A stretch of 52,634 bases of DNA from Oscillospiraceae bacterium (GTDB taxonomy: Bacteria > Bacillota > Clostridia > Oscillospirales > Ruminococcaceae). A program made the translations under genes and the position numbers. Below the pieces are notes generated by a model. It saw nothing but the letters and a program-made list of their open reading frames with translations. It made no database searches and was not told the origin of the DNA. The DNA lies in NCBI GenBank assembly GCA_036311245.1, contig JAXJQH010000122.1, positions 1 through 52,634 on the forward strand. The letters are read 5' to 3'. Shown here piece by piece: positions 23,610 through 51,216 of the stretch (positions are counted from its first letter, which is position 1; each line of letters opens with the position of its first letter).

Positions 23610-23615
23610 TTATCT

Positions 23616-24937: not shown

Positions 24938-24955
24938 GCTTTGTTTAAAATTAAA

Positions 24956-24985: not shown

Positions 24986-24992
24986 TTATTTT

Positions 24993-27172: not shown

Positions 27173-27186
27173 TTATATCTCCGTTT

Positions 27187-27981: not shown

Positions 27982-28003
27982 AACCTTTCCCTCCAAGCCG
28001 CCT

Positions 28004-29050: not shown

Positions 29051-29147
29051 AACTATCCCCTCCACGGGTTATTATATGCCGCCTTGTGCGGCGTAATGTC
29101 CAATAGAAAAGTATACCACACTTAGAACGCTGCCGCAACCATATTTT

Positions 29148-30344: not shown

Positions 30345-30530
30345 TTTTTCACCTCGTAAAATTCAAAGGACTTTTTCTTTAGCAGTTTACCACATTTTTC
30401 TCCTTTTTTCAACTCTTTCCGACACTTAGCTTATATATAAGAAGGAAATATCCGCTAAAGATTGCTTTTTTAATCTTAATGTGTTAAAATAAATTAGTTT
30501 AAGCAAAAAATGGGAAGGAAGTATTATTTT

Positions 30531-31735: not shown

Positions 31736-31749
31736 AACGGAGCTGAAGA

Positions 31750-32997: not shown

Positions 32998-33011
32998 TTT
33001 GGAGGAACACT

Positions 33012-34220: not shown

Positions 34221-34318
34221 CTGACTGAATAATTCTATTTTTTCATTGACAATGCGCACTTTGCGTGGCATAATTTTAAAGAACATATTCCCTTACCCCC
34301 CCCGAAAGGATGAGAACT

Positions 34319-35395
34319 ATGAAATATGCACTTATCGGTTGCGGTCGTATCGCTCCCAACCACCTGAGAGCCGCTAATGCAAACGGACTTGAGCTTGTTG
34401 CAATTTGCGATATTGACCCCTCACAGATGCAGGCGCTGTGCGAGAAGTTCTCTGTTCCCGACAGTGTTTTAAGATTTACAGACCATAAAGCTCTGCTTTC
34501 CGAAATAAAGCCTGACCTTATAGCTATTGCGACCGAAAGCGGCAGCCACGCAGAAATTGCAAAGGACTGTATCCGCGCAGGCTGCAACCTCATTATTGAG
34601 AAGCCAATTTCCCTTTCATTGCACGATGCTGCCGAGATAGTCTCACTTTCAGAAGAGTACAAGGTCAAGGTTTCTGCATGCCATCAAAACAGGTTTAACA
34701 TTGCCATTCAGAAAGCCCGCAACGCTCTTGAGGCGGGTCGGCTGGGAAATCTCTCGCACGGAGCAATCACCGTTCGCTGGAGCCGAGGCCAGGGTTACTA
34801 TGCGCAGGCAGATTGGCGCGGCACCTGGGCTTGCGACGGCGGGACACTAATGAACCAATGTATCCACGGCTTTGACCTCTTACGCTGGATGATGGGAGAT
34901 GAGATAAGTGAGGTCTACGGGGTTACCCGTCAGGCCTTCCACCCCTACATAGAGGCTGAAGACCTCGGTATGGCTGTTATAAAATTTAAAAACGGCGCTA
35001 TCGCCACTGCCGAGGGCACTACCAACATTTATGACAATTCCCTCGACACCGAAACCCTCTGCCTTTATGGCGACAAGGGAGCGATTGAAATAGGCGGCAC
35101 AGCCGCAAATCGAGTTACCGTCTGGTCATTTGCCGAGGAAGCCTACGACGACAGTGAGCACCGCAACCTTTCCGAACAGGCGGCAAACGTTTACGGAAAC
35201 GGACACACAAGCCTCTATGCTGATGTTATCGACGCGGTACAAAATGACCGCCCGCCATATGTCGATGCGAAGGCGGGAATGCGTGCACTCGAGCTTATTC
35301 TCGCAATATACAAAAGCATGAAAGAGGGGAAACCCGTTTCTCTCCCACTTGATGATTTTTCCACAATGGATATGGTCGGCACGTTTGATAAATAA
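34319..35395 (+). CDS. Gfo/Idh/MocA-family NAD(P)-dependent sugar oxidoreductase
   Basis: Begins MKYALIGCGRIAPNH (Rossmann) and contains an EKP motif (IIEKPISL). Start at ATG 34319 (GAAAGGA 8 nt upstream). Confidence 0.85.
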   Translation: MKYALIGCGRIAPNHLRAANANGLELVAICDIDPSQMQALCEKFSVPDSVLRFTDHKALLSEIKPDLIAIATESGSHAEIAKDCIRAGCNLIIEKPISLSLHDAAEIVSLSEEYKVKVSACHQNRFNIAIQKARNALEAGRLGNLSHGAITVRWSRGQGYYAQADWRGTWACDGGTLMNQCIHGFDLLRWMMGDEISEVYGVTRQAFHPYIEAEDLGMAVIKFKNGAIATAEGTTNIYDNSLDTETLCLYGDKGAIEIGGTAANRVTVWSFAEEAYDDSEHRNLSEQAANVYGNGHTSLYADVIDAVQNDRPPYVDAKAGMRALELILAIYKSMKEGKPVSLPLDDFSTMDMVGTFDK

Positions 35396-35400
35396 TGAAA

Positions 35401-35573
35401 GTGAACTATCCTTTGAATGCGAAATAATGACCTACGGTCATTGTGAAATATTGCTCCTTCGTCGCAATGTGAAATGAAATTTGCCCACATTCGCGCCAGC
35501 GAATATTTCACATTTACGAAGTAAATATTTCACAGCGAAGCTATTTCACTTGCCCGTTAGGGCAAATTTCGTT
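35401..35573. repeat. motif/mini-hairpin array A (TGTGAAATA forward, TATTTCACA reverse)
   Basis: Forward copies at 35418, 35442 and 35468. Reverse copies at 35504, 35526, 35542 and 35565. Each interval is a short palindrome: ATGACC-TAC-GGTCAT, TTCGC-GCCA-GCGAA, TTTAC-GAA-GTAAA, GC-GAA-GC, TGCCC-GTTA-GGGCA. Confidence 0.85.
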
Positions 35574-35574
35574 G

Positions 35575-35620
35575 AAAAGAAACAACCTTTGTCTTGGTAG
35601 ACAAAGGTTGTTTCTTTTCT
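35575..35620. terminator. strong hairpin plus T-run closing array A
   Basis: AAAAGAAACAACCTTTGTC-TTGGTA-GACAAAGGTTGTTTCTTTT. Confidence 0.75.
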
Positions 35621-35667
35621 GAAAGGGTATGAATTTTTGACCTATGTGTTCGAGCACCTACAAATTT

Positions 35668-35838
35668 AGTGATATTGTGCCTTTGGCACAGTGATATTTT
35701 TGCGTTGCAAAAGTGATATTGAAACCTATGGTTTCAGTGATATTATATTCGCCATAAAACTGGGCAAAGCCCAATATCACTCGGCGCAAGCCGAATATCA
35801 CTGCGTAGCAATATAACTCGCCGAAGGCGAATATAACT
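35668..35838. repeat. motif/mini-hairpin array B (4x AGTGATATT, then 4x AATATCACT/AATATAACT)
   Basis: Forward copies at 35668, 35690, 35712 and 35736. Reverse copies at 35773, 35794, 35810 and 35830. Intervals are GTGCC-TTT-GGCAC, TTTGC-GTT-GCAAA, GAAACC-TAT-GGTTTC, GGGC-AAA-GCCC, CGGC-GCAA-GCCG, GC-GTA-GC, CGCC-GAA-GGCG. Confidence 0.9.
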
Positions 35839-35839
35839 G

Positions 35840-35871
35840 AAAAAGACGATTGCTTTCGCAATCGTCTTTTT
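35840..35871. terminator. bidirectional terminator between array B and tRNA-Arg
   Basis: AAAAAGACGATTGC-TTTC-GCAATCGTCTTTTT, 2 nt from the tRNA 3' end. Confidence 0.85.
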
Positions 35872-35873
35872 CT

Positions 35874-35950
35874 TGGCGCGCTGTGAGGGACTCGAACCCC
35901 CGACCTTTTGGTTCGTAGCCAAACACTCTATCCAGCTGAGCTAACAGCGC
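35874..35950 (-). tRNA. tRNA-Arg (anticodon ACG)
   Basis: Minus strand folds as a cloverleaf: GCGCTGTTAGCTCAGCTGGATAGAGTGTTTGGCTACGAACCAAAAGGTCGGGGGTTCGAGTCCCTCACAGCGCGCCA. Anticodon loop CTACGAA. CCA is encoded. Confidence 0.95.
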
Positions 35951-36039
35951 AAAATAAACAAACGCTTTTCAGCGCTCATATATATTATCACAGTTAGGGG
36001 CGGTTGTCAAGCATTTTGCGAACAATTTTTTGCCCAAGC

Positions 36040-36762
36040 TTACATATTGCTTGCGATTGTATAAAGCCTTTCTCCGCTGTCGCTCATAGAAATAAAATCA
36101 TTGTCCCGATTTGAAAAAATAATGTGGTCAACAAGCTCAACTCCGACACTGTCAAGCGCAAGCTGAAGCTGCCGCGTAACCTTTATATCCTTTACCGAGG
36201 GCAGAGCCGCGCCTAACGGGTGGTTGTGAAACACAACAACGCCGACTGCGCCGCAGCTGATAAGCTGTCTTATTATTTTGGGGATACAGATTGAAACCGC
36301 ATCAAAGCTTCCTTCCGCCACCTTTATAAGACGGATAAGCCTTTTCTTGTCATCAAGCGCTAAAACAAAGGTGGTTTCAACATTAATCCCCTGAAAAAAC
36401 GGTACGATATAAGAGCCCAGCCGTTCAGTGGTATTAAGAAACTCCCGATTATCAAAATTGCTCATCTGCGACTTCATCAAATCTGAAATAAATCTTATAA
36501 GGAAAGCCGTTTGCTCGCCCACCCCCTTAACCTTAACAAGCTCCTCTATGGGAGCTTCAAAGACTGCACCAAGTGTACCGAGCTCGTTTATGAGTCTGTG
36601 GGCGACCTCGTTGGTATCCTGCTGAGCATTGCAGTAGTACAAAAGAAATTCCAGCACCTCGTGGTCGGAAAATCCGTCAAAGCCCACTTTGAGATACTTT
36701 TTTCTGACTCTTTCCCTGTGTCCTTTGTGAACATTGGGATCCCTTTTCTTTTTCTCTGCCAC
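36040..36762 (-). CDS. radC: RadC-family JAB/MPN-domain protein
   Basis: 240 aa with an N-terminal HhH region (VKGVGEQTA) and the C-terminal JAMM motif VVVFHNHPLGAALPSVKD. GTG start. Confidence 0.88.
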   Translation of the reverse strand: MAEKKKRDPNVHKGHRERVRKKYLKVGFDGFSDHEVLEFLLYYCNAQQDTNEVAHRLINELGTLGAVFEAPIEELVKVKGVGEQTAFLIRFISDLMKSQMSNFDNREFLNTTERLGSYIVPFFQGINVETTFVLALDDKKRLIRLIKVAEGSFDAVSICIPKIIRQLISCGAVGVVVFHNHPLGAALPSVKDIKVTRQLQLALDSVGVELVDHIIFSNRDNDFISMSDSGERLYTIASNM

Positions 36763-36793
36763 TAAAAGTCCGCCCCCTTTCTCATTTTTATGT

Positions 36794-36822
36794 ATTATAG
36801 CATACTTTTATCGCCCGAGCAA
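36794..36822 (-). promoter_or_regulatory. sigma-A-type promoter for radC
   Basis: Minus strand reads TTGCTC, 17 nt, TGcTATAAT (extended -10). Confidence 0.5.
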
Positions 36823-36832
36823 TACAAAAAAT

Positions 36833-36857
36833 CGCCCGCAAGTAAAATCTTGCGAGC
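36833..36857 (-). terminator. terminator after glsA
   Basis: Minus strand CTCGCAAG-ATTTTA-CTTGCGGG followed by CGATTTTTT. Confidence 0.6.
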
Positions 36858-36917
36858 AACTTTTGTAATTCTTTATTTGATTTTTTAAGCCCAAACAAAA
36901 CTTAATTATATTTGATA

Positions 36918-37835
36918 TTAGAAGATACTCAGCTCAAATTTTTTGCTAAGCATTTCTAATGCTTTAATTCCCGCAACACTGTTGCCTTTTTTATCGAGCG
37001 CAGGCGAATATATTCCTATACCCATTTTGTTTGGAACCACCGCCATAATTCCACCGCCGACTCCGCTTTTTGCGGGGACTCCGACATTTATGGCAAATTC
37101 GCCTGAGCCATCATACATTCCGCAGGTCATAAGCACCGCATTGGTGTATGTGGCATATTCCTTTTTAAACAGCCTTTGCCCGCTTGTCGGCTCTATGCCC
37201 GAGTTTGCAAGGACAAATGCTATCCTCGCCAAATCCTTGACGCTCACCTTTATAGAACAGGCTCTGAAATAGCAGTCAAGCACATCTTCAATGTCATCGT
37301 CAATCATTGAGTATGCCTTGAGCATATATGCCAAGGCTCTGTTTTTGTTGCCCGTTGCCTTTTCAGACAAATACACCTGCTCGTCTATTTCGAGCCTCTC
37401 GCTGCCTGCCATTTTCCTTGTTAAATCAAGCAAGTGCTCAAACTTTTCTTTATATGTCCTTCCGCAAAGCAGCGTGCACAGCGCTATTGCTCCTGTGTTT
37501 ATCATAGGGTTAATATGCTCTCTTCTCAAAGCGCGGTCGCTGTAGTTAAAGGCATCAAACGGCTTGCCCGTTGCCTCTACCCCGACAAGGCTGCGAACAC
37601 GCTCATCACCCTTGTCCATAAGTGCCGCCAAAAGAATAATTGGTTTGACAACGCTTTGCATAGTAAAGCTCTTGTCGCAGTCGCCCGCAGGTTGAGTTAT
37701 TCCGTCATTAGTCAGCACACATATTCCGAATTCGTTTCTGTCCGCCTTTGCAAGCTCAGGGATATAACTGGCAATCTCCCCGTCCTGCGCAAACCCTTGG
37801 CATTCTTTTAATATCTCTTTAAGCTCTTTTTCCAT
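36918..37835 (-). CDS. glsA: glutaminase A
   Basis: 305 aa with YIPELA, FTMQSVVKP (catalytic Ser-x-x-Lys) and SGVGGGI motifs. Confidence 0.92.
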   Translation of the reverse strand: MEKELKEILKECQGFAQDGEIASYIPELAKADRNEFGICVLTNDGITQPAGDCDKSFTMQSVVKPIILLAALMDKGDERVRSLVGVEATGKPFDAFNYSDRALRREHINPMINTGAIALCTLLCGRTYKEKFEHLLDLTRKMAGSERLEIDEQVYLSEKATGNKNRALAYMLKAYSMIDDDIEDVLDCYFRACSIKVSVKDLARIAFVLANSGIEPTSGQRLFKKEYATYTNAVLMTCGMYDGSGEFAINVGVPAKSGVGGGIMAVVPNKMGIGIYSPALDKKGNSVAGIKALEMLSKKFELSIF

Positions 37836-38036
37836 TTCCGATTATCCCAAAAGGGTCCATCTTTCCTTCCCAAGGCTTATTTGTTTTTCTGTATGCAAGC
37901 ATAGTGTGTCCTCTGAGATGGGTTTTTATTATTTCAGCGCGCCTTATACCTCAAGGCGAAAAAAGAGAAAGGATCGGAACAATAAAATGCATATGAACCG
38001 CCAATAAAATTGCAATAACAACAGCTAACAAATTTA

Positions 38037-38687
38037 CTAACAGTGCAATCTTTTTATTTTTTCTTTCGCGATTTCGTTGCATTTATTTAAGTAGCGCATA
38101 ACCGAACGTTTTCCTACGGCTGTGCTTCCGAATGGGTCGTATTCATGGGCGGCAACAATTCGGTTGATGTCTATACATTTTAGTTTATTTACAGACTCTA
38201 TATATCGGTCAAAATTTTTAATTCCATTCCTATATTTCCCAATACCATCCAACTGTAAACAATCTCCTGACAACAATGTTTTTGTAAATGTGTCGTAAAA
38301 GCCAAAGGAATGTTCCGTGTGTCCCGGTAAATAGATGGCTTTTAGATTCCCAAATATTGTTTTGTCATCAACCAAATCTATTCTATTTGATAAATCAATA
38401 TTGAAAGATGTGCAAAGCATTGCATTGGGAAAATTTTCAGATAAACGCCTTATTCCACCCGCATGATCGCTATGATTATGAGTTAACAGTAAATACTTTA
38501 CATCATCATATGGAATATTCATTGTATCAAGAGCAGGAATAATATATTCATCAACATCAGAAGAATAGGTCGCACTATCTATAATTGCAACCCCTTGCTC
38601 ACATACATAAATATACACCGTTGTTGTTATTTCTTCAAAGGGAATCCGTATTTTGAAAAGCCCATTATCAATCTTGTCAATATTCAT
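38037..38687 (-). CDS. MBL-fold metallo-hydrolase
   Basis: Contains THNHSDHAGG (the HxHxDH motif). Start at ATG 38687 (AGGTG upstream); the track ORF extends to 38726. Confidence 0.85.
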   Translation of the reverse strand: MNIDKIDNGLFKIRIPFEEITTTVYIYVCEQGVAIIDSATYSSDVDEYIIPALDTMNIPYDDVKYLLLTHNHSDHAGGIRRLSENFPNAMLCTSFNIDLSNRIDLVDDKTIFGNLKAIYLPGHTEHSFGFYDTFTKTLLSGDCLQLDGIGKYRNGIKNFDRYIESVNKLKCIDINRIVAAHEYDPFGSTAVGKRSVMRYLNKCNEIAKEKIKRLHC

Positions 38688-38714
38688 ATAACACCTGCTT
38701 GGTTGTTTTTTGAA

Positions 38715-38744
38715 ATTATACCCCATTCAGCGGTATGGGTGCAA
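38715..38744 (-). promoter_or_regulatory. candidate promoter for the MBL hydrolase gene
   Basis: Minus strand reads TTGCAC, 18 nt, TATAAT. Confidence 0.45.
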
Positions 38745-38805
38745 GGGTGAAATCAATGCGAAAGATTATTTGATACACAGCTTAAGGTGTGATGATATCA
38801 ACAAG

Positions 38806-39633
38806 CTATAGATAAAGCGTTTGCCCACCTTTAACGCAGTATGTTTTATTTATATGATGAAACCACACATCTATTACAGAGGGATTGTGTATAATGTTTT
38901 TGTCAATACTGATTTGAAGGTTTTCGTATGCTTTTGCATAATCGTATATTTCAACATTAGTAGCATACCAGATATCATCTCTTCCGCCAATATACTCGGC
39001 AAAATTTTCAATCACTTCCCAATTATCATTATTATCAAACTCATAGCTGTGTCCCCACAAATAAAACAGCCAAATATCGCCGTAATATCTACCCTTCTCC
39101 TCAACAAACTTTTTAGCCAGCTCCATAAGTTTAGGGTTGTTGTGATGGCAAGTCGGATTAAGCTCAAGCCAGTTTTCGGGAAACTTGAAACTTTCAGTTG
39201 ATTTTGTAGTTCTTGAATAACAGATCCCACACTTTCTTAAAGCATCTATCACTTCACCGCTATATGTTCCGAACGGATATGCCATTCCTCTTGCCAATGT
39301 ACCGTATTGTTGTTCAATATTCCTTCTATCCTCAATAACTTCCGTTAAAATCTCTTCCGTTTTCAGCTTCTCTAAAAAAGGATGAGTCAGGGCATGAACG
39401 GCAACCTCATGACCTGAATTTATATATAGTTCTTTCGCTTCCGACAATTTCATTCTACCGTAAAACTTTTCACGCGTTGCTTCTTCCGGCAAATACCGTC
39501 CTGTATTTATATTGAAAGTGGCCTTAATTCCATGCTTATTTAGAGTTTTTACTAACCTAATGTCCTGCACAACACCGTCATCGTAACTTAGAGTAAGCAC
39601 CTTTGACTTGCCGTCTTTTAATTTCATGTACAT
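38806..39633 (-). CDS. polysaccharide deacetylase (NodB homology, CE4)
   Basis: Contains LTLSYDDG (Asp-Asp motif), HEVAVHALTHP and a later WGHSYEF. Start at ATG 39633 (AAGGAAG 8 nt upstream). Confidence 0.85.
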   Translation of the reverse strand: MYMKLKDGKSKVLTLSYDDGVVQDIRLVKTLNKHGIKATFNINTGRYLPEEATREKFYGRMKLSEAKELYINSGHEVAVHALTHPFLEKLKTEEILTEVIEDRRNIEQQYGTLARGMAYPFGTYSGEVIDALRKCGICYSRTTKSTESFKFPENWLELNPTCHHNNPKLMELAKKFVEEKGRYYGDIWLFYLWGHSYEFDNNDNWEVIENFAEYIGGRDDIWYATNVEIYDYAKAYENLQISIDKNIIHNPSVIDVWFHHINKTYCVKGGQTLYL

Positions 39634-39674
39634 AATACACACTTCCTTACTCCACTTTAATTAACCTTAATATT

Positions 39675-39703
39675 ATTATATTACAAATGTGATAGCGGTG
39701 CAA
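39675..39703 (-). promoter_or_regulatory. near-consensus sigma-A promoter for the deacetylase gene
   Basis: Minus strand reads TTGCAC, 17 nt, TATAAT. The 17-nt spacer contains one copy of the array motif (GCTATCACA). Confidence 0.6.
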
Positions 39704-39811
39704 GTTATTAGTGATATTATATTTTCCCTTAACTGCCCGAAATGCAATGTAACTCGGCGTTAGCCAAATATCACTGCGAAGCAATATAACTCACCAAAGG
39801 CGAATATAACT
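39688..39811. repeat. motif/mini-hairpin array C (shorter homologue of array B)
   Basis: TGTGATAGC at 39688 and AGTGATATT at 39710. Then AATGTAACT at 39746, AATATCACT at 39767, AATATAACT at 39783 and 39803 (spacing 21/16/20, as in B). Intervals are CGGC-GTTA-GCCA, GC-GAA-GC, CACC-AAA-GGCG. Confidence 0.85.
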
Positions 39812-39812
39812 G

Positions 39813-39848
39813 AAAAAAACTCCTTGAGAAAATCTCAAGGAGTTTTTC
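39813..39848. terminator. bidirectional terminator hairpin closing array C, downstream of the PH-domain gene
   Basis: A7-CTCCTTGAG-AAAAT-CTCAAGGAG-T5. Confidence 0.8.
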
Positions 39849-39849
39849 T

Positions 39850-39899
39850 GGGTAGTTTGAACTTAATGACACGAATGAAATGTGCCTGAAAACTGATGG
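39850..39899. repeat. 50-nt 3'-flank module, copy 1
   Basis: GGGTAGTTTGAACTTAATGACACGAAT... The first 27 nt are identical to 40462..40488. It lies between the PH-gene stop (39909) and the terminator hairpin. Confidence 0.85.
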
Positions 39900-39908
39900 T
39901 TTTCTAAA

Positions 39909-40283
39909 TTATAATACTCTTTCTGAAATCATTTTGCAAATTGCAGAAACATTAGCATTTTTAACAAATTCAAACTTTACCTTACCAAGTCCCGAAAACC
40001 AAAGTTCTAACTCACTATCTAAATCAAAAACTCCAGCTGTTTCTACTGAAAATGCTTGTATTTTACTGTATGGTAAAGAAGTAAAGTCTTTTTTTGTGCC
40101 GGTAAGCCCTTGTACATTTATTGCAATTATCCTTTTGTTTGTAAAAACAACACCATCACGAATGCCTTTAAAGGTAGATAAAATACTTTCTCCATCCGCA
40201 AAAGTTGCAGATATTGAAGAAGCGTATGTAGAATTATCTACTGCCTTTAATTTAAAGTAACTTGCATTTTTAAAATCAATCAT
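39909..40283 (-). CDS. bacterial PH-domain protein (YokE-like, bPH family)
   Basis: 124 aa counted from ATG 40283 (AAAGGGG upstream). The pattern GVVFTNKRIIAINVQGLTGTKKDFTSLPYSKIQAFSVETAG...ELELWF is typical of bPH domains. Confidence 0.7.
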   Translation of the reverse strand: MIDFKNASYFKLKAVDNSTYASSISATFADGESILSTFKGIRDGVVFTNKRIIAINVQGLTGTKKDFTSLPYSKIQAFSVETAGVFDLDSELELWFSGLGKVKFEFVKNANVSAICKMISERVL

Positions 40284-40308
40284 TTTTATAACCCCTTTCT
40301 TTTTGATT

Positions 40309-40337
40309 ATTATAGCATTAGGGAATAAAAAATGCAA
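40309..40337 (-). promoter_or_regulatory. sigma-A promoter for the PH-domain gene
   Basis: Minus strand reads TTGCAT, 17 nt, TGcTATAAT. Confidence 0.6.
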
Positions 40338-40357
40338 GGCAAAGCCTTGCAAAAAAA

Positions 40358-40428
40358 CTTATTACCTCTTACCTATTACTTATTACTTTCCAAAAATCGA
40401 CCCAAAGATTAGTGAAGAGTGAAAAAGT
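40358..40428. repeat. low-complexity imperfect palindrome D (CTTATTAC-type)
   Basis: CTTATTACCTCTTACCTATTACTTATTAC...AGTGAAGAGTGAAAAAGTAA. Homologous to 41631..41724. Confidence 0.75.
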
Positions 40429-40461
40429 AAAATCCCGCCCTCTTTCGAGAACGGGATTTTT

Positions 40462-40510
40462 GGGTAGTTTGAACTTAATGACACGAATTATATGTATCTG
40501 AAAACCGAGG
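40462..40510. repeat. 50-nt 3'-flank module, copy 2
   Basis: GGGTAGTTTGAACTTAATGACACGAAT... lies between the SGNH-gene stop (40518) and a hairpin (40429..40461). Confidence 0.85.
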
Positions 40511-40517
40511 ACTTATC

Positions 40518-41537
40518 TTAATTATGTAATATTTCTTTTATGTGTTTCGACAAATTTTCAAAATAATACTCAAAGCCCTTATCGTTTGGATGGAGTCTCA
40601 AATCGGCAAACAAATCTACATTTTGCGGAACAAATTCAAATCCGTGAATTACCGAAGCGTTTTTAAAATCAGCTACTTGTTTTTCAACGATTTCACCCAC
40701 GCATCTAAAATCACCAAAGGGTCTGCTCTCGTTCATATCCTTGCGCCATATTGGTGTGATTACAAAAATTTTAGCATTTGGATAGTGACTGCTTAAATTA
40801 CAAAGAATTTCTTTACAGTTTTGCGTCAAATTTTCCTTAGTAGACCTGTTCCAATCATTTGAGCCATACGAAATTAAAATATAATCAGGTTCAAAAGTTT
40901 CCTTTTCTTTTGCGAGCTCAGGAAAGTAAATTTCGCCACCAATCGCCTTATTATACTCCTCAACATCAAGCATATTTGCAATTTTGGAAATATACCTATT
41001 GCTTGGATATAGCGCATCATAGCCCTGGGTGATTGAATCACCAAAAACAAGCATTTTTTTACTGAGTTTGACAGGTTTAATAAAAGAATCGTCATCAATA
41101 ATAAGCTCTTTTATTGTGGCCTTGACCGACCAGGGAAAATAGATCAAAACCTCTTTTTCTCCCGTTCCTAAGTAAAACTTTTTAGAAAAATCACCAAATG
41201 AAAATTGGGTTGCGGTATAATTGCCTGACAACTCCGATTCGCAGAAATTTTTAATATCGTCTATTTTTTCACCGTTTACAAATACTTCAAAAGCAAAATA
41301 ACTTCTGGTACTGCCATTGGTAACATCTACGTTTAAAAAGAGTGATTGACTGTTAGTACGAAAACGCATTTTCACGCCTGATGTACAAAAGGTTTTTAAA
41401 TAAAAACTGGTATTTCTATTCTTGTATAATTCCTCTTGGTGCTTCGTAAAACGATAGAAGTGAAAAGCGTTATCATTTTCTTCAATTCTAACCGCACCTG
41501 TAGTTATGTTCTTGATTTGTGATAAATTTAATTTCAT
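40518..41537 (-). CDS. SGNH/GDSL-family hydrolase with an N-terminal beta-sandwich domain (probable carbohydrate esterase)
   Basis: 339 aa counted from ATG 41537 (GGTGGAG upstream). Contains VFGDSITQG (block I Ser), GSNDW (block III) and a C-terminal D..LHP. Confidence 0.82.
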   Translation of the reverse strand: MKLNLSQIKNITTGAVRIEENDNAFHFYRFTKHQEELYKNRNTSFYLKTFCTSGVKMRFRTNSQSLFLNVDVTNGSTRSYFAFEVFVNGEKIDDIKNFCESELSGNYTATQFSFGDFSKKFYLGTGEKEVLIYFPWSVKATIKELIIDDDSFIKPVKLSKKMLVFGDSITQGYDALYPSNRYISKIANMLDVEEYNKAIGGEIYFPELAKEKETFEPDYILISYGSNDWNRSTKENLTQNCKEILCNLSSHYPNAKIFVITPIWRKDMNESRPFGDFRCVGEIVEKQVADFKNASVIHGFEFVPQNVDLFADLRLHPNDKGFEYYFENLSKHIKEILHN

Positions 41538-41558
41538 AAAATCTCCACCTTTAAGCGT

Positions 41559-41587
41559 ATTATAGCATAAAAGCGAAAATAAATCAA
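41559..41587 (-). promoter_or_regulatory. sigma-A promoter for the SGNH hydrolase gene
   Basis: Minus strand reads TTGATT, 17 nt, TGcTATAAT. Confidence 0.6.
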
Positions 41588-41630
41588 TGCGAAGCATTGT
41601 ATTTATAATTCGTGGCGAAGCCACACCACA

Positions 41631-41724
41631 CTTATTACCTTTTACTTATTACTTATTACTTCCCAAAAATCCCGTGAAAGACTTTATTTGAAGTAAGAGT
41701 GAAGAGGTAAGAAGTAATAAGTAA
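41631..41724. repeat. low-complexity imperfect palindrome E (CTTATTAC-type)
   Basis: The left arm CTTATTACCTTTTACTTATTACTTATTACTTCCC pairs imperfectly with the right arm GAAGTAAGAGTGAAGAGGTAAGAAGTAATAAGTAAAA. It is preceded by mini-hairpins AATGC-GAA-GCATT (41586) and GTGGC-GAA-GCCAC (41612). Confidence 0.8.
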
Positions 41725-41754
41725 AATCCCGCTCACTTACGTGAGCGGGATTTT
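41723..41754. terminator. bidirectional terminator abutting the tRNA-Thr 3' end
   Basis: AAAATCCCGCTCAC-TTAC-GTGAGCGGGATTTT. Confidence 0.85.
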
Positions 41755-41830
41755 TGGAGCTGCTAACCAGAATCGAACTGGTGACCTCATCCTTACCAAG
41801 GATGTGCTCTACCGACTGAGCCATAGCAGC
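41755..41830 (-). tRNA. tRNA-Thr (anticodon GGU)
   Basis: Minus strand folds as a cloverleaf: GCTGCTATGGCTCAGTCGGTAGAGCACATCCTTGGTAAGGATGAGGTCACCAGTTCGATTCTGGTTAGCAGCTCCA. Anticodon loop TTGGTAA. CCA is encoded. Confidence 0.95.
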
Positions 41831-44414: not shown

Positions 44415-45152
44415 TCACATCTTCTTTCTGCAGCCATCAATCTGTATATTTTGCCCTGAAATATAACTCGCCTCATCACTTGCTAAAAAGCAGATTAGGT
44501 TTGCATTTTCGCGATCGGTACCCGTGCGCCCCATAAAGCTCAGCTCGGACGGCTGGTAATAATCTATATCCTCGTTTTGAGATGAGCTCACGCTGCCCGG
44601 CGAAACACAATTAACCAGCACTCCCTTATCCGCCACCTCTTTGGCTAACGCTTTAGTCATTGTAATAACTGCGCCCTTTGTTGCAGAATAGTGTACCATA
44701 TTTGCGTTTCCGTAAACACCTGCGACAGATGACACGTTAATGATCTTGCCGTAATGGTTTTCAATCATGCTACCGATTACTGCTCTCGTACAGTAATACA
44801 CGCCCATAATGTTTACGTCAATATATCGTTTCCACAAATCCGAAGATGATTCCGCAAATTTGGACCTATCCCGCCACAGCGCGGCATTGTTCACAAGGAT
44901 GTCGATTTTTCCGAAGTGTTTGATTGCATCAAAAGCAACTTCATTTACACGATTTTCATCGCTGACATCACATTCATATGTTAAGACTCTGCACCCACAT
45001 TTTTTTGTTTCTTCGCTGACAGCCAGAAGTTTTTCAGCATTCACATCCAACAAAACCAAATCAGCTCCCTGCTCTGCAAGGCAAAGAGCCACTGCTCTGC
45101 CTATTCCAACCGAAGCTCCTGTTATCATTGCAACTTTTCCCTGAAATTTCAT
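44415..45152 (-). CDS. SDR-family oxidoreductase (FabG-like)
   Basis: 245 aa counted from ATG 45152 (AGGAGGAG upstream). Contains TGASVGIG, NNAA and YSATK motifs. Confidence 0.9.
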   Translation of the reverse strand: MKFQGKVAMITGASVGIGRAVALCLAEQGADLVLLDVNAEKLLAVSEETKKCGCRVLTYECDVSDENRVNEVAFDAIKHFGKIDILVNNAALWRDRSKFAESSSDLWKRYIDVNIMGVYYCTRAVIGSMIENHYGKIINVSSVAGVYGNANMVHYSATKGAVITMTKALAKEVADKGVLVNCVSPGSVSSSQNEDIDYYQPSELSFMGRTGTDRENANLICFLASDEASYISGQNIQIDGCRKKM

Positions 45153-45320
45153 AACAACTCCTCCTTTTTGATTAAGCATAACATTCGAAATCTTCAAATT
45201 CAATGCTTATAATGATGTGCTGTTTAGCATTTTCGAAACAAATATCTATATTATGAGCGAAAATACATCATATTCTTGACTATTATGAATTTAAATGGTA
45301 GTATAAAACGGGTGAGGGAA

Positions 45321-46067
45321 ATGAATAACAACAATATCAGAATCGAACAGTTTAAGAATATTTCCTATGTGAAAGATAAAAAAGGACGTATCTTAACCTT
45401 TCATTCGCGCTATGCAAGTTGTTTTATCATTACTTTAAAAGGAAGACTTAAGTTCACTTTTGATGACAAGATTATCATAACCGATCATACCCAGGGACTT
45501 TTCATTCCCGAGGGAATGGCTTACATCAATGAGTGCCTTGAGGATGCAGCAAGCATTTCTGTAAACTTTCAAATAGCAGAACCGGCCACGTCTCCACGCA
45601 TATTAAATGGAATGAGTGAGGTGCTGGCAATGGACTTTTATCAGGAGATCTGTCGTAAAGCATATGAAAACACAGAAATTGCACAATACTATCTATTGTC
45701 AAAACTGTATCAACTTGCCCTCCTGCTTTTCCAGAACGATTCACCGAAAAGTATTAAAGAAATTCTTGCAAAAAAAGCCTGCTCCTATATTCAAAGTGAA
45801 TTTTCAAGATCGGACTTACAGATAGATGATGTGGCAAGGTTTTGCAATATTAGCGCAGTTTATCTGCGAAAAATAATGAAAGAAATCTATCATAAGACTC
45901 CCTTTGAGCTGTTGACTGAACTTCGAATGAAAAAGGCATATGAAATGCTTATGGAAAAAATGTCCGTTAAAGAAATTGCTTTAACGGTGGGATACTCGGA
46001 TATTTATCAATTCAGTCGTGCCTTTAAACGTCATTTCGGACACACGCCTACTACAGTTTCCAAATGA
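45321..46067 (+). CDS. AraC-family transcriptional regulator (cupin-like N-domain plus HTH_18)
   Basis: C-terminal IALTVGYSDIYQFSRAFKRHFGHTP. Start at ATG 45321, downstream of a TTGACT / 17 nt / TAGTAT promoter-like site at 45275..45303. Confidence 0.85.
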   Translation: MNNNNIRIEQFKNISYVKDKKGRILTFHSRYASCFIITLKGRLKFTFDDKIIITDHTQGLFIPEGMAYINECLEDAASISVNFQIAEPATSPRILNGMSEVLAMDFYQEICRKAYENTEIAQYYLLSKLYQLALLLFQNDSPKSIKEILAKKACSYIQSEFSRSDLQIDDVARFCNISAVYLRKIMKEIYHKTPFELLTELRMKKAYEMLMEKMSVKEIALTVGYSDIYQFSRAFKRHFGHTPTTVSK

Positions 46068-46074
46068 CACGAAA

Positions 46075-46109
46075 AGACCTGCAATCCCGAATGGGATCGC
46101 AGGTCTTTT
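46075..46109 (+). terminator. intrinsic terminator after the AraC gene
   Basis: AGACCTGCAATCCC-GAAT-GGGATCGCAGGTCT followed by TTTT. Confidence 0.8.
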
Positions 46110-46324: not shown

Positions 46325-47173
46325 TCATCCAAACAAATACGGCATCCTACCTTTAGTTTTTGTTTCACAAATAAATGTGTATCCAGAATTTGTGTCAATG
46401 CTTAAATCGGCTCCGCGACTTGCAGTTACAATCACTAATTTGTCCATATTTTCGCCCGCAAAGCAACAACTAGCAGGAATTTTTGCAGGAACGCTTATAT
46501 ATTCTTTGATTTGCATATCAGCAGTATCTACCACCGCAATGTGGCTCTGTTTCCAACAAGCAACATAAAGAAAATCGTTTTGATCTATTGTAAAACCGTC
46601 TACACCTTTCACCCTTATCTCTCTACCTGTAAATGAGATTTCACCTTTTTCTTTATCAAAATCATATTCCTTGATTATTCCTGTGGCACTATCGGTATGA
46701 TAAAACCGTTTTTCATCTATGGACCAATCAAAACCATTTGAAAGAATTAGTCCGTCAAGCAAAATTTTCACTTCGCCGTTTTTATCTATACTGTAAAGCT
46801 TGCCGTTTATCTCATCGCCTGTTCCAAAACGCTTACTGCTTTGAGTCCCAATATAAAATCTCCCGTCAGGTCCTACCTTTGCATCATTTCCAAACTCTAT
46901 TTTATATTTTTCGGTATCATAAAGTGGTGTGCGGGTATTGTCATCATTTAATTTAAATGCACCGTCCGCACAAGAAATAAGCATTTCACCTTTCTTTGAG
47001 AAGCCCATAGCCACCACACCAAAGGGGAGTTTTCTGGTTGTTACTTCCCCTGTTTTAATATCTATTTCAAGAATTTCATCAGCATAACCGTTTACCTGAT
47101 ATAGCTTATTGTTAAATTTATTCCAAATTGGACCTTCGCCTATGATACAATGCTTATTGGATAATATTTTCAT
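46325..47173 (-). CDS. SMP-30/gluconolactonase/LRE-family beta-propeller protein
   Basis: 282 aa counted from ATG 47173 (GGAG upstream). Contains EGPIW, NDAKVGPDGRFY, SNGFDWS and DGFTID metal/active-site motifs. The track ORF is extended by 54 spurious codons. Confidence 0.85.
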   Translation of the reverse strand: MKILSNKHCIIGEGPIWNKFNNKLYQVNGYADEILEIDIKTGEVTTRKLPFGVVAMGFSKKGEMLISCADGAFKLNDDNTRTPLYDTEKYKIEFGNDAKVGPDGRFYIGTQSSKRFGTGDEINGKLYSIDKNGEVKILLDGLILSNGFDWSIDEKRFYHTDSATGIIKEYDFDKEKGEISFTGREIRVKGVDGFTIDQNDFLYVACWKQSHIAVVDTADMQIKEYISVPAKIPASCCFAGENMDKLVIVTASRGADLSIDTNSGYTFICETKTKGRMPYLFG

Positions 47174-47210
47174 TTTATTTCTCCTCACAATAGTCCGTTT
47201 TCCTTCTTCT

Positions 47211-48029
47211 TTAAGATTCGTCTTTTGTAAGTCTGTTTTGAATAATTGCTTCTGCCGCCCGAATTTGTTCGTCCGAAGGTAATATTTTAGGCAAAGTATT
47301 TTCCATACCGAGTGCATCATACTTTGAGCCGGCATAATTATGATATGGCAAAACCTTTACTGCTTTTATGTTTTTTACTGTTCTTAAAAACTCGGCAATT
47401 TTTTCAATTTGGTCAGAGTTGTATTCAGGCACATATGGTACTCTTACTTCAATAGTTTTACCGAGAGAGTCTATATACTTAATATTTTCTAAAATTAGTT
47501 TATTAGACTGTCCTGTGCATTTAATATGTACGTCTTCATCAATCGCTTTTACATCATAAAGAAAAGTATCGGTATATGGTAAAACCTTATCAATAGCCTC
47601 TTTTGGCACAAAACCGCAAGTGTCAACTGCCGTGTTGATGCCATTCTCTTTTAATACCCTTAAAAGTTCAGCACAAAAGTCAGCCTGACAAAGACATTCT
47701 CCACCTGAAAGAGTAACGCCGCCACCGCTTGTATCGTAAAAATCTTTATCCTCTAAAAGCACAGGCAGCAATTCTTCTACCGTCATTTCTTTGCCGTACA
47801 AGACCTTTGCCTCACCAAGGCAGCCCTCAGTGATAAACCCTTCTTTTTGACATTCACCGCATCCGATACATTTGTTTTTGTAAAAGGCAATCTGCGGTTT
47901 AAAAGAGATGCTTTCGGGGTTGTGACACCAAATGCATTTTAGCGGACAGCCCTTAAAAAATACAGTAGTCCGTATTCCGTCACCATCGTGAACGGCAAAA
48001 CGCTTTATATCTGAAATTAATGCTTTCAT
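47211..48029 (-). CDS. glycyl-radical enzyme activating protein (radical SAM)
   Basis: 272 aa with CPLKCIWCHNPE (CX3CX2C), an extra CIGCGECQKEG cluster motif and GGVTLSGGE. Its start forms an ATGA overlap with the GRE stop. Confidence 0.92.
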   Translation of the reverse strand: MKALISDIKRFAVHDGDGIRTTVFFKGCPLKCIWCHNPESISFKPQIAFYKNKCIGCGECQKEGFITEGCLGEAKVLYGKEMTVEELLPVLLEDKDFYDTSGGGVTLSGGECLCQADFCAELLRVLKENGINTAVDTCGFVPKEAIDKVLPYTDTFLYDVKAIDEDVHIKCTGQSNKLILENIKYIDSLGKTIEVRVPYVPEYNSDQIEKIAEFLRTVKNIKAVKVLPYHNYAGSKYDALGMENTLPKILPSDEQIRAAEAIIQNRLTKDES

Positions 48030-50305
48030 TGTATATTCTCCGCTCTTAGAATATAAGCATCCTGCTCTTTTTTACTCATATTGTTCCAAAGAACATTCCA
48101 ACCACAAACTCTTACCTGCAAGTTTTTATATTTATCGGGATTCTTTTGTGCATCAAGAAGCATTTCTTTATTAAAAATATTAAAGTGAATTGAGGCACCG
48201 CCTTTTTTCATATATGTCTGCAAGACATTATATAAAATCTCCAGACCATCCTCACCCTGCACAGCGGACGGGTGTAGCATTACATCTAAGCAGGTACCCG
48301 AATCCGCAAGACTTAAATCCATATTTGTTGCCGAGGCGATCAGCGCGGTAATGCCGTTTTTGTCCATACCCGCCGTAGGTGAGGCGTTTTTGGAGGTTTC
48401 GTCTCCATGCTTTCTTCCATCAGCAGTGGCCTCGGTTCTTCTGCCCTGACCTATATAGGCACGCGCAGAATGAAGCTCATATTCAAAATTGCCTCCATGA
48501 CAATTTTTAAGACCTGAGAATTGCGCCGAAAAAAGTTGATGTATGGCGTTAGCGTAGCTGTCAGCCAATTTATCACCATTGCCGTATTTGTGCTTGCAGT
48601 TTAGCGCTTTTAGGCGTAGTTTTTCGTAGCCAACCCAGTTGTTTTGTAGCGCCTGTTTAAGCTCTTTGAGTGTGGTCTCGCCTTTTTCAAAAACCAATTC
48701 GTAAACGGCCATAAGTGCATCGGTAGCACTACCCAAGCCATTGAGCCACATACTAGATACATTGTTTATACCGCCGTTATTTGCATCAATCATCTTCTCT
48801 ACACATTGCGGTATGGTCGCCGAATACAAAACAGAGGGATTAACTCGATTAACGTGTGTTTCAAAAACTAATATACCCTCGAGTGCACGCCTAACAACAT
48901 ACACAAATTGACGCCTGTATGCCGAATAAAACTCCTCAAAGCTTTTAAACTCGGCTACATCGCCGGTTTCTACGCCTAATTTAATACCAGTCAGCAAATC
49001 GACACCATTATTAAATACTAACGCAACCGGTTTTAAAGCGTTTACAGTATTAAAAGATATACACAATGTGTCGGCCTTTGTAACATATTCATAGCATCCT
49101 TTCACTACCGAGTCGAGCGCCCTTTCATAAGTTGCACCCTGACGCATAAGCGCCTTAACTATGGTTTCTTCATTACAGAAAACAATGCTATTGGAGCCGT
49201 GGCGAATCATTTCAAGCGCCTTTAGGATAAAATCCTTTGGGGTATTGCGGTTCACTTTAATCTGTATTTTCGGGTTATAAATATCAAGCTCATCATATAC
49301 ATCCAAAATTAAATAAGTCAATTCATTGACCTTGGTGCTGCCATCGGGGTTGGTACCCGCAAGGTACATAGGCTGACCCCAGTAGTTTCCCATAGCAGAA
49401 AACTGCAAAAGAAAATATACAATAAAGGTTGCAATTTCTTCCTCAGTGAAGGTACCGTTTTGGATGTCTTTTTTATAAAAAGAATAAAGCGTTGCATCAA
49501 GACCATAGCCTAACGAGCGTACTTGATAATGGTCAATACTTTCGCTAATCATAAAGTATAAATAAATCATCATCAGTGCATCGTATGTGGTTTTTGGGGC
49601 GCCGCTCCAAAGGTTTTTAAGCGATTCGGAAATTCTTTTTTGCTTATCAGAGCTTTTAGTGAGTGAATAGTTATATAACCTGTCTATAAACCTTAAAATT
49701 GCTTCATACGTAATGGTCAATGCCGCAAAGAATTCCTTTTGCTCTTCACTCAGTTCGTGTTTATCATTCAACGCATCGTATGAAGCCTGCGCACGAGCCA
49801 AAATGCCTCTGAAGCCGAGTTTCATCAAAGAGTTATAATCCGGAACAGTATGGTCAAAATCAAGGTGCAGGTTCACAGTACCCGTCGTTGAATAATCATT
49901 AATGTAATTGCTGCCAAGCGCCTCTTTAGTCTCTTCGTATGCCTGCTGATGCCACGGATTGATTGTGTGCGCATCAATTAATCTACCCCAAGAATAAATC
50001 CCTGGGAAATAGTCATTTTCATTAACATCAATTCGCGTATTATCAAGAACATACTCGACAGTCCTCGCCTTTATAATATAGCGAGATTTACCTTCTAACT
50101 GCTTAACAAGCTTTGCAAGACCTGTATTAATTTCATTATCGCTAAGCCCGGTTGCCGAATCATACTCGTATCCATGGTATTGCCTATGACGAAAAGCGTT
50201 GAAGGATTCATTAGTATTATGATATTTGTTTTCAATATAAGCCCTGTCTTGCTCAGGTAAGATAAAAGAATAATTTTTCATGTGTTCCTCCACTATTTTT
50301 TTCAT
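48026..50305 (-). CDS. glycyl radical enzyme of unassigned function (PFL-like fold, Cys-x-Glu eliminase-type active site)
   Basis: 759 aa. The C-terminal Gly-radical motif is VRVCGWN (Gly codon 48101..48103). The Cys loop is KGCYEYV (Cys 49094..49096, Glu 49088..49090). There is no CC pair as in pyruvate formate-lyase. Confidence 0.85.
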   Translation of the reverse strand: MKKIVEEHMKNYSFILPEQDRAYIENKYHNTNESFNAFRHRQYHGYEYDSATGLSDNEINTGLAKLVKQLEGKSRYIIKARTVEYVLDNTRIDVNENDYFPGIYSWGRLIDAHTINPWHQQAYEETKEALGSNYINDYSTTGTVNLHLDFDHTVPDYNSLMKLGFRGILARAQASYDALNDKHELSEEQKEFFAALTITYEAILRFIDRLYNYSLTKSSDKQKRISESLKNLWSGAPKTTYDALMMIYLYFMISESIDHYQVRSLGYGLDATLYSFYKKDIQNGTFTEEEIATFIVYFLLQFSAMGNYWGQPMYLAGTNPDGSTKVNELTYLILDVYDELDIYNPKIQIKVNRNTPKDFILKALEMIRHGSNSIVFCNEETIVKALMRQGATYERALDSVVKGCYEYVTKADTLCISFNTVNALKPVALVFNNGVDLLTGIKLGVETGDVAEFKSFEEFYSAYRRQFVYVVRRALEGILVFETHVNRVNPSVLYSATIPQCVEKMIDANNGGINNVSSMWLNGLGSATDALMAVYELVFEKGETTLKELKQALQNNWVGYEKLRLKALNCKHKYGNGDKLADSYANAIHQLFSAQFSGLKNCHGGNFEYELHSARAYIGQGRRTEATADGRKHGDETSKNASPTAGMDKNGITALIASATNMDLSLADSGTCLDVMLHPSAVQGEDGLEILYNVLQTYMKKGGASIHFNIFNKEMLLDAQKNPDKYKNLQVRVCGWNVLWNNMSKKEQDAYILRAENIQ

Positions 50306-50424
50306 CTAAAATATACATTATTTGCAATGCTCTGTAAATAAATAAAAAAAACAATTATTACTTTTAGAACATAAAATCATTGCATTTTCATAACTTTTGA
50401 TGTAATATATATTTGGTGATGCAA

Positions 50425-51216
50425 ATGAAGATAACCGATGTTGAGTTAAATATAAATTCCATACTTGATGTTAAGAAAGGCAGAATACGGCCATCTTCCC
50501 CTAAGTGCAGTGCGCGCCATAGTGATTGCTTTGCTTGTGTGCTTACAGGCAGCGCGGAATATATTTTAGACGGCAAAACCAATATCGCTCGGCCCGGCGA
50601 TATTATTTTTCTATCACACAACAGCAATTATTCAATAAAGGTAACCGATGAAAACTATACCTTTATTTTTATTGATTTCTTTTTTGAAAACGCATCAAAT
50701 ACGGTTTTTACAAATGAAATCTATAACCTCAAAAATTTTTCTGTTTTAAAAAGCAGTTTTGAGAGAATATATCATTTTTTCAATACAGGCAATTTTTCAG
50801 ACAAAATCTATTGTAAATCTATCATTTATAATATCTATTCGGAGATTGTAAAATCCTATTTTTCACAGTATATATCACACGATAGACGAAAACAGATAGA
50901 ACAAATCGCAACATATATTCACGAAAATCTATCAGATAGCGACCTATCCATCAAGAAATTAAGCAAAATGTGCAATATTAGCGAAGTGCATTTCCGCAGA
51001 ATATTTTCTTGTATATATCATATTTCTCCCATAAAATTCGTTACTCTCGCCAGAATAAACAAGGCAAAGGAGCTTTTACTTTCAGAGACCTGTAGTATTG
51101 CCGAAGTTGCAGAAAAATGTGGATTTCAGAACCACTATTATTTTTCAAAGGTTTTTAAATCCGAAACCAATATGACCCCCCGCGACTTCAAAAGATTTTA
51201 TTCATCAAATTTGTAA
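50425..51216 (+). CDS. AraC-family transcriptional regulator, divergent from the GRE operon
   Basis: Cupin-like N-domain and C-terminal HTH (IAEVAEKCGFQNHYYFSKVFKSETNMTP). ATG 50425 has GGTGA 5 nt upstream. Confidence 0.85.
   Translation: MKITDVELNINSILDVKKGRIRPSSPKCSARHSDCFACVLTGSAEYILDGKTNIARPGDIIFLSHNSNYSIKVTDENYTFIFIDFFFENASNTVFTNEIYNLKNFSVLKSSFERIYHFFNTGNFSDKIYCKSIIYNIYSEIVKSYFSQYISHDRRKQIEQIATYIHENLSDSDLSIKKLSKMCNISEVHFRRIFSCIYHISPIKFVTLARINKAKELLLSETCSIAEVAEKCGFQNHYYFSKVFKSETNMTPRDFKRFYSSNL

Follow-up and report, generated by a model that had tools for sequence, protein, structure and literature searches.

A glycyl-radical enzyme family of gut Clostridia and its facultative partnership with predicted lactone and ester hydrolases

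Glycyl-radical enzymes (GREs) perform difficult anaerobic chemistry in the gut that affects the host, with trimethylamine, p-cresol and H2S precursors as examples. This study concerns an operon encoding a GRE, its activating radical-SAM enzyme (activase) and a hydrolase with the SGL domain of the SMP-30/gluconolactonase family, together with a divergently transcribed gene for an AraC-family regulator. The operon lies on contig JAXJQH010000122.1 of an Oscillospiraceae bacterium (assembly GCA_036311245.1), and the whole stretch of 52,634 nucleotides that was analysed is referred to as the window. Judged by its sequence, the GRE is a member of a large, widespread and previously unstudied family of gut Clostridia.

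The operon and its genes

The features of the locus are compiled in Table 1. An earlier sequence-only reading of this DNA had placed four genes here, and open reading frame (ORF) calls, Pfam and NCBIfam bear out all four at their positions; the GCYE, RVCGW and CPLKCIWC motifs and the ATGA overlap could likewise be read directly in the sequence. Two of its figures require adjustment. The SGL gene does follow the activase gene, with a gap of 37 rather than 38 nt, since the start preceded by a GAGGAG ribosome-binding site is at 47173 within a longest ORF of 46325..47335. The 759-aa GRE frame stands as an ORF, and the protein is most likely 751 aa long when read from Met9, as judged by the GGAGG upstream of this codon and by the length of the closest relative.

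No hairpin comparable to the 17-bp-stem terminator downstream of the SGL gene is present at the junction between the activase and SGL genes. This terminator, located between the convergent SGL and second AraC (AraC2) genes, is likely the end of the GRE-activase-SGL transcript, and the GRE, activase and SGL hydrolase genes with the divergent AraC gene are described here as one predicted unit, closed by a strong terminator. The supposition that the block is AT-rich is borne out by a GC content of 38.7% across 45.2-52.6 kb versus 46% in the first 37.9 kb. As also anticipated, neither shell proteins nor a P5C reductase or a small subunit appear among the Pfam matches listed for the window, which cover the proteins of 36-52 kb individually and, elsewhere, the 25 commonest among 72 matched families. 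Genes for bacterial microcompartment shells were likewise absent from the Pfam families listed for the window proteins scanned and for the operon neighbours, the latter as the 25 most frequent families in related loci.

Table 1. Coordinates of the GRE operon and of other features of the window
Feature	Position	Strand	Evidence or remark
AraC-family regulator	50413..51216	+	Pfam HTH_18 5.6e-19, HTH_AraC 5e-16; cupin-like N-terminus; divergent from GRE operon
Divergent intergenic control region	50282..50412		Between AraC and GRE genes
Putative promoter-like site, TTTACA-17-TATATT	50338..50310	-	Consensus match only
Ribosome-binding site, GGAGG	Ahead of GRE Met9	-	Consensus match
GRE ORF, 759 aa	48026..50305	-	Pfam PFL-like PF02901 4e-97, Gly_radical PF01228 9e-23
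Probable GRE start, Met9	50281	-	Gives 751 aa; GGAGG upstream; length equals that of closest relative
GRE His152	49850..49852	-	Invariant in 79/79 family sequences
Cys loop G403-C404-Y405-E406 (GCYE)	49088..49099	-	Catalytic Cys and Glu of CxE
Glycyl radical motif RVCGW, Gly735	48098..48112	-	
GRE-activating radical-SAM enzyme, 272 aa	47211..48029	-	Radical_SAM and Fer4_12; TIGR02494 300 bits, cut-off 174
Activase CX3CX2C motif (CPLKCIWC)	47925..47948	-	
ATGA overlap of GRE and activase genes	48026..48029	-	Predicted translational coupling
SMP-30/gluconolactonase-family six-bladed propeller hydrolase, 282 aa	46325..47173	-	Pfam SGL 5e-49; last operon gene
Hairpin terminator, 17-bp stem	46072..46109		Between convergent SGL and AraC2 genes
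SDR and AraC2 divergon	44415..46067		Pfam
SDR	44415..45203	-	
AraC2	45276..46067	+	
Metallo-beta-lactamase-fold protein	38037..38726		Second AT-rich island
CE4 polysaccharide deacetylase	38806..39642		Second AT-rich island
GDSL hydrolase	40518..41624		Second AT-rich island

Placement and catalytic residues of the GRE

The GRE possesses the defining features of its superfamily, namely a PFL-like barrel with a glycine radical domain, the RVxG[FWY] motif, a catalytic Cys and a nearby activase with a CX3CX2C motif. Its scores fall under every NCBIfam equivalog and subfamily cut-off: 344 bits for the HypD model NF043068 (cut-off 1100), 321 for TIGR01774, the PFL2/glycerol dehydratase subfamily (cut-off 678, with the first ~150 residues unmatched), 289 and 272 for the HpfG and HpsG models NF048009 and NF048011 (cut-off 1000), 237 for the CutC model TIGR04394 (1050), 211 for the PflD model NF007437 (1109), 203 and 188 for the HPAD and IAD decarboxylase models (1150 and 1100), and 87 for the PFL model TIGR01255 (994). 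Sequence identity is 31% to HypD, 28% to A. fulgidus PFL2, 27% to glycerol dehydratase and to CutC, 26% to YbiW and to PflD, and 19% to PflB; the range of 19-31% for these reference GREs compares with 46-86% for other members of the family. In a neighbour-joining tree, 79 family sequences formed a single, monophyletic clade, and the same reference proteins fell outside it. The family also has a set of invariant residues that is not shared with other GREs. The sequence-only reading had called the GRE an orphan and proposed its phylogenetic placement as a check; the protein indeed falls in no characterised clade included in the tree, its pocket-position residues differ, and with the cut-off scores and the family's own invariant residues the orphan status is upheld. 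Assignment of a known function was rejected, as the NCBIfam, PDB sequence and profile, and Foldseek matches were distant and about equal for every eliminase and isomerase.

The family is large. A protein search yielded more than 120 clusters at 54-86% identity and ~745-755 aa, either unnamed or labeled 'hypothetical protein', with the named records derived from metagenome-assembled genomes of Clostridia. A scan of one genome per species turned up relatives in no fewer than 558 of the genomes. The 80 best-scoring loci belong without exception to uncultured gut Clostridia, including Oscillospiraceae, Christensenellaceae, Acutalibacteraceae, Avilachnospira and Scatosoma, and were obtained from goat, buffalo, deer, sheep and horse samples as well as from Hadza and Nepali human cohorts; the best-matching loci overall come from ruminant, horse, bird and human guts. 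Whole GRE clades remain without assigned function (PMC13450708, section 7), and the clade of the window GRE is one of those that appear without experimental validation in surveys. Unlike other unannotated GRE clades, it is delimited by its species genomes (at least 558), signature residues and recurrent accessory genes.

The AlphaFold2 model of the GRE (pLDDT 90.8, pTM 0.90) can be superposed from end to end on solved GREs (TM scores 0.79-0.86, 18-26% identity), and its Foldseek scores to isomerases are as good as those to dehydratases. The N-terminus, which had been described as atypical, is so in sequence, its first 142 residues matching just 107 of 1.84 billion cluster representatives; this does not extend to structure, because the modelled fold is canonical over the whole length.

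In the alignment of 79 family sequences, the invariant positions (79/79) are D149, H152, P155, R263, G268, D270, P312, Y314, G403, C404, E406, H612, A614, S638, K639, N640, S642 and D674; Q261 is kept in 78 of the 79, position 410 is always Lys or Arg, and the Gly735 motif is retained in all 78 sequences that cover that column. C404 and E406 fall opposite the CxE pair found throughout the eliminases and isomerases (C433/E435 in glycerol dehydratase, C434/E436 in HypD), and Gly735 aligns with G763 and G765 of the same two enzymes. H152 aligns with His164 of glycerol dehydratase, His160 of HypD, His165 of YbiW and His156 of PflD, the corresponding residue of CutC being Asp. The GRE therefore carries both the Cys-x-Glu and the oxygen-leaving-group acid His of the CxE eliminase/isomerase class. 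The counterpart of H152 in glycerol dehydratase has been proposed to donate a proton to the departing hydroxyl (PMC13450708), and from this alignment we infer C-O cleavage: the GRE is predicted to be a C-O-cleaving eliminase or a ring-opening isomerase, two options that sequence cannot separate.

Several family-specific polar or charged residues that are invariant or nearly so, namely Q261, R263, K/R410, H612 and K639, occupy positions where other GREs have hydrophobic, acidic or other side chains, and several such positions adjoin known pocket residues. Q261 is aligned to HypD D278 and H612 to glycerol dehydratase Y640, while K639 stands in place of an Asp or Glu and R263 in place of a hydrophobic residue; S417 aligns with glycerol dehydratase D447. 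The Arg of the usual 'GR-x-DQ' motif is missing, the family having GYG there. With pocket positions assigned by alignment, these residues give weak hints of a polar, perhaps anionic, substrate. Compared with HypD (PDB 6VXC) and the glycerol and propanediol dehydratases (1R8W, 5I2A), the window GRE has a common fold (TM ~0.8), Gly motif, CxE Cys loop, His160/His164-equivalent His and PFLE_PFLC-type activase directly downstream. It differs from them in overall sequence (27-31% identity), in having Gln, His and Ser for HypD Asp278 and glycerol dehydratase Tyr640 and Asp447, in the loss of the 'GR-x-DQ' Arg and the new invariant Arg263, and in the sequence of its family-specific N-terminal 150 residues; in contrast to the loci of those enzymes, no P5C reductase or microcompartment genes were seen near it among the Pfam families listed.

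Gene neighbourhoods across the family

ORFs were called in 82 non-duplicate loci (numbered here with the prefix L) and clustered, and the neighbours were annotated with Pfam. The conserved core consists of the divergent AraC gene (~65 of the 82), the GRE gene and the activase gene (~57 loci, many contigs being truncated). The closest relative, L001, whose GRE is 86% identical, has the core only, with neither lactonase nor SDR. Among the Pfam families co-directional and contiguous with the GRE gene, the commonest are SGL (12 loci), EamA (12), SASA acetylesterase (5) and GDSL (3), followed by PTE (2), glucuronoyl esterase-like (2), RhaA (2) and a beta-lactamase-fold esterase (1). The recurrent lactonase and esterase partners thus named come from non-homologous folds. 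Hydrolase or permease genes reside inside the operon in 19 of ~80 loci, the window included, and these loci are spread over many separate branches within both major branches of the family tree. Most of the inserted genes are positioned between the GRE and activase genes, and co-transcription with the GRE is therefore implied. The SGL gene, scattered over the tree in 12-13 of ~82 loci, usually begins 8-22 nt after the GRE gene and precedes the activase gene. The richest arrangement was found in L052, which reads, from the divergent AraC gene, GRE, SASA, PTE, SGL, GDSL, EamA, activase and PTE; upstream of it lie a beta-lactamase-fold gene, an MBL-GDSL fusion, a PIG3-type reductase and a DHquinase_I/DeoC-like gene.

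The sequence-only reading had asked whether the lactonase adjacency recurs in any other genome, and its recurrence settles that point in favour of a link. We estimate, without a formal computation, that fewer than one in 82 loci would have an SGL neighbour by chance, assuming at most two SGL genes per genome of ~2,000 genes; the observed recurrence lies far above this rough figure. The synteny of GRE, activase and lactonase is thus recurrent without being conserved across the family: because about three quarters of the loci hold AraC, GRE and activase only, the lactonase link is, on the gene-order evidence, real but facultative. To our knowledge, no other lactonase is operonic with a GRE.

The SGL protein itself appears to be an intact metal-dependent hydrolase. 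Its SGL domain scores 167 bits (Pfam cut-off 26), and its best solved relative is human regucalcin (9e-28), whose metal ligands E18, N103, N154 and D204 align with E13, N96, N146 and D192; these residues are kept among the GRE-linked SGLs. With its propeller domain and divalent-metal ligands, the protein belongs to the SMP-30/gluconolactonase/LRE family, and it has the SGL domain and all four metal ligands in common with the SMP-30/regucalcin gluconolactonase (PDB 3G4E) and bacterial sugar lactonases. It differs from the solved members in identity (~30% or less), and the GRE-linked SGLs form a discrete subgroup, 46-71% identical to the window SGL (one outlier, 27%) as against at most 34% for other SGLs. 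A query of metagenome contigs with the window SGL returned mostly unrelated soil SGLs at 34% identity or less and three close relatives, in L088, in L090 and on a contig too short to show context. In L088 (536-2395), a PTE-SGL pair 73% and 66% identical to that of L052 lies on a 6-kb contig with no GRE, and in L090 (3-2016) an SGL-EamA-GDSL run adjoins an AraC-GRE cassette whose GRE is a more distant paralogue. The hydrolase module is therefore also found away from GREs of this family.

The operons also bear traces of rearrangement. An 84-aa N-terminal activase remnant lies between the SASA and SGL genes of L017 (10902-11156), and a 93-aa EamA gene remnant lies inside the operon of L038 (11107-11388), which together point to module insertion and decay inside operons. 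Small ORFs between the genes had been considered as GRE small subunits and were rejected, as they correspond to these activase and EamA remnants. In the window, the activase has a 23-residue deletion in its ferredoxin-like insert that leaves four of the eight auxiliary-cluster Cys (CIGCGEC...C); the short form also occurs in L001, L055, L061 and L069, and ~11 of 61 activases have 273 aa or fewer. Activases that share 80-83% identity with that of the window are paired with GREs that match the window GRE at only 48-49% (comparison with L061, L063, L069, L077, L079 and L055), and the nearest counterpart of the window SGL (70-71%) is encoded in L055, where the GRE is 49.5% identical. The disagreement between the GRE and activase histories suggests that operon modules were shuffled among loci. 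For the accessory proteins, NCBIfam matches were sub-threshold only; the nearest model for EamA, below threshold, is a carboxylate/amino acid/amine transporter, a weak hint of an anionic substrate.

Further variation was observed around the core. A second GRE paralogue (~708 aa, 33-38% identical) adjoins the family GRE in L006, L008, L011, L012, L014 and L045, directly upstream in five of these loci and with the activase gene intervening in L014; one activase apparently serves both GREs. The paralogue retains R263, the Cys and the His, as well as the CxE Glu in most copies, and lacks Y314 and H612. No activase gene lies within the sequenced flank in L005, L007, L009 (Candidatus Avilachnospira), L018, L025-L027 and others; in L007 and L009, a divergent DMT/EamA-like permease gene directly follows the GRE gene. 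A DHquinase_I/DeoC-like TIM-barrel gene recurs upstream of the GRE cassette in L047, L052 and L061, accompanied variously by SDR, PIG3-family quinone oxidoreductase (L052, L061), beta-lactamase-fold, MBL and amidohydrolase genes, with an EamA gene in the L061 group. These upstream groups may supply additional steps of a pathway whose substrate is cyclic or of the enone type.

Elsewhere in the window, a second AT-rich island (37900..41750, 34.5% GC) beside tRNA-Thr (41755..41830) encodes three hydrolases. Its metallo-beta-lactamase-fold protein is homologous to the products of genes adjoining GRE cassettes in L047 and L052, and a functional tie between this island and the GRE operon is possible. 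Positions 1..37900 carry housekeeping genes typical of a strict anaerobe, including an [FeFe]-hydrogenase with NuoF-like and 2Fe-2S subunits, RuvABC, CysRS, Ddl and malic enzyme, with no GRE-related genes among the Pfam families listed.

Proposed function and alternative readings

The reading we favour, tentatively and as little short of an even call, is that the window contains an AraC-controlled operon for a new GRE family, in which a hydroxy compound freed by a hydrolase undergoes radical C-O cleavage. The substrate would be a polar, probably carboxylate-bearing hydroxy compound that is partly present as a lactone or ester. Where present, the EamA permease would import it, and the AraC protein would sense it. 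In the window, the SMP-30-type hydrolase, with its predicted lactonase activity, would free the substrate from its lactone or ester, a role that in other genomes would fall to lactonases of the PTE type and to SASA, GDSL and beta-lactamase-fold esterases. The activase would generate the radical on Gly735, from which it would pass to Cys404, and Cys404 would then abstract a hydrogen from the hydroxyl-bearing carbon. Glu406 and His152 appear to be in place for the subsequent 1,2-elimination or ring opening with cleavage of a C-O bond, His152 by analogy with the residue that protonates the leaving oxygen in glycerol dehydratase. The lactonase would be an optional helper, because most family members lack one, and the GRE product would enter general metabolism, because no dedicated downstream genes are linked to the operon. 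On general chemical grounds, optional hydrolases would fit a compound whose free acid exists alongside its lactone or ester, or one whose lactone or ester opens without enzymatic help. Our best guess at the substrate is a hydroxy acid set free from such a lactone or ester; the candidates are aldonic and further sugar acids, the lactones of these, sugar acids bearing O-acetyl groups, and cyclitol acids or esters from plants, of the quinate/quinides type.

Several observations weigh against this proposal. About 75% of the loci, among them the closest relative, have no operonic hydrolase or permease, and the window SGL gene follows the activase gene, unlike in the commonest order. No conserved downstream pathway genes emerged from the Pfam census of neighbours, and among 269 non-operonic neighbours within 4.5 kb Pfam revealed no recurrent catabolic genes, the neighbours being heterogeneous. 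His152 does not discriminate dehydratases from ring-opening isomerases. R263 is placed differently by HMMER and MAFFT (opposite glycerol dehydratase S282 or I283), so substrate binding by this residue is not claimed, and it may merely compensate for the lost 'GR-x-DQ' Arg.

The first two of these points would also suit an incidental or loose adjacency of the lactonase, in which AraC, GRE and activase are the whole system, the GRE acts alone on a freely available small substrate, and the product is excreted or passed on to general metabolism. About 75% of loci show nothing beyond the three-gene core, this core occurs in unrelated genomic contexts in the manner of a mobile cassette, and the block is AT-rich. 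We regard this as unlikely, since hydrolase and permease genes were inserted between GRE and activase in many independent branches, the rough chance expectation for an SGL neighbour is below one locus in 82, and the activase and EamA remnants inside two operons indicate that modules were assembled and decayed there.

A distinctly unlikely alternative is that the GRE is a ring-opening isomerase acting directly on a cyclic ether or lactone-type ring, with the hydrolases only trimming side groups or acting on the product. YbiW and PflD (PDB 8ID7, 8ID0) are ring-opening isomerases of 1,5-anhydroglucitol-6-phosphate and 1,5-anhydromannitol-6-phosphate that cleave a C-O bond, and they keep the CxE motif and the His (alignment; PMC13450708). 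The equal Foldseek scores for isomerases and dehydratases are compatible with such an activity, as is the regulator gene that adjoins both systems, the E. coli pflDC genes having the putative transcriptional regulator gene yijO beside them. The identity to YbiW and PflD is just 26%, however, and the window family lacks their context of PTS, phosphatase and fructose-6-phosphate aldolase genes, with no sugar-phosphate aldolase or kinase nearby; its partners are instead ester and lactone hydrolases and a DMT permease. The present data do not distinguish an isomerase from a dehydratase.

The sequence-only reading had joined the SDR/AraC2 divergon to the operon in an oxidative sugar route. Spelled out as a non-phosphorylative pathway, the SDR would make an aldonolactone, the SMP-30 protein would open its ring, and dehydration of the resulting aldonate by the GRE would give a 2-keto-3-deoxy acid. 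The SMP-30 and PTE families include sugar lactonases, and a PTE protein matches a phospho-furanose lactonase model, below threshold. Carbohydrate esterases within operons, a co-oriented RhaA or fucose isomerase gene following the GRE operon in three loci, and the SDR gene 1.2 kb away in the window would agree with this route, whose chemistry is plausible for a CxE GRE bearing the His. An SDR gene lies within 3 kb of the GRE gene in only four of ~82 loci, however, at 27-39% identity, and no KDG kinase, KDG aldolase or dedicated sugar dehydrogenase recurs among the neighbours of ~82 loci by Pfam; the DHquinase_I/DeoC-like gene is found in four loci only. The family thus has no conserved dehydrogenase, aldolase or kinase of such a pathway, and the closest relative has neither the SDR nor the lactonase. 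In the window, a strong terminator and a separate AraC gene stand between the SDR gene and the operon, and the divergon is probably outside the system. The SDR-based route is accordingly not supported and is quite improbable, with an aldonate as GRE substrate possible but not favoured; the usual partners, being ester hydrolases and a DMT permease and not dehydrogenases, point to de-esterification or delactonisation feeding the GRE. Of the interpretation first offered, the orphan GRE and the lactonase link persist, and the oxidative SDR route and a structurally atypical N-terminus do not.

Finally, it is scarcely conceivable that annotation had simply missed an orthologue of one of the characterised GREs, be it a dehydratase of hydroxyproline, glycerol or propanediol or a lyase of choline or isethionate: HypD, PFL2 and glycerol dehydratase are the best matches, but all scores lie far below the cut-offs (e.g., 344 of 1100 for HypD), identity is at most 31%, the protein falls outside the reference clades and its pocket-position residues differ, which effectively refutes this reading.

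None of the characterised GREs in the June 2026 review of the superfamily works with a lactonase or esterase (PMC13450708), and literature searches for a GRE linked to a lactonase or gluconolactonase, to sugar or quinic acids, or to an AraC regulator gave nothing relevant, in agreement with the earlier statement that no GRE pathway involving a lactonase had been described. A match concerning S. anginosus was discarded as unrelated to this theme. The clade might represent the first GRE pathway dependent on lactone or ester hydrolysis, in which gut Clostridia would import a diet- or plant-derived lactone or ester, free the hydroxy acid and cleave its C-O bond by radical chemistry, a proposal that we consider possible while leaning towards doubt. 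If it is true, a substrate class never before assigned to GREs, for instance sugar-acid lactones or quinate-type cyclitol acids and esters, would come within their reach. What is new is a widespread clade with an accessory partnership of a new type within a superfamily that is itself known. The recurrent accessory genes focus the search for a substrate on hydroxy compounds that derive from lactones or esters, and assignment of the function would add a reaction or substrate class to the GRE superfamily and could explain a step in the anaerobic breakdown of dietary compounds.

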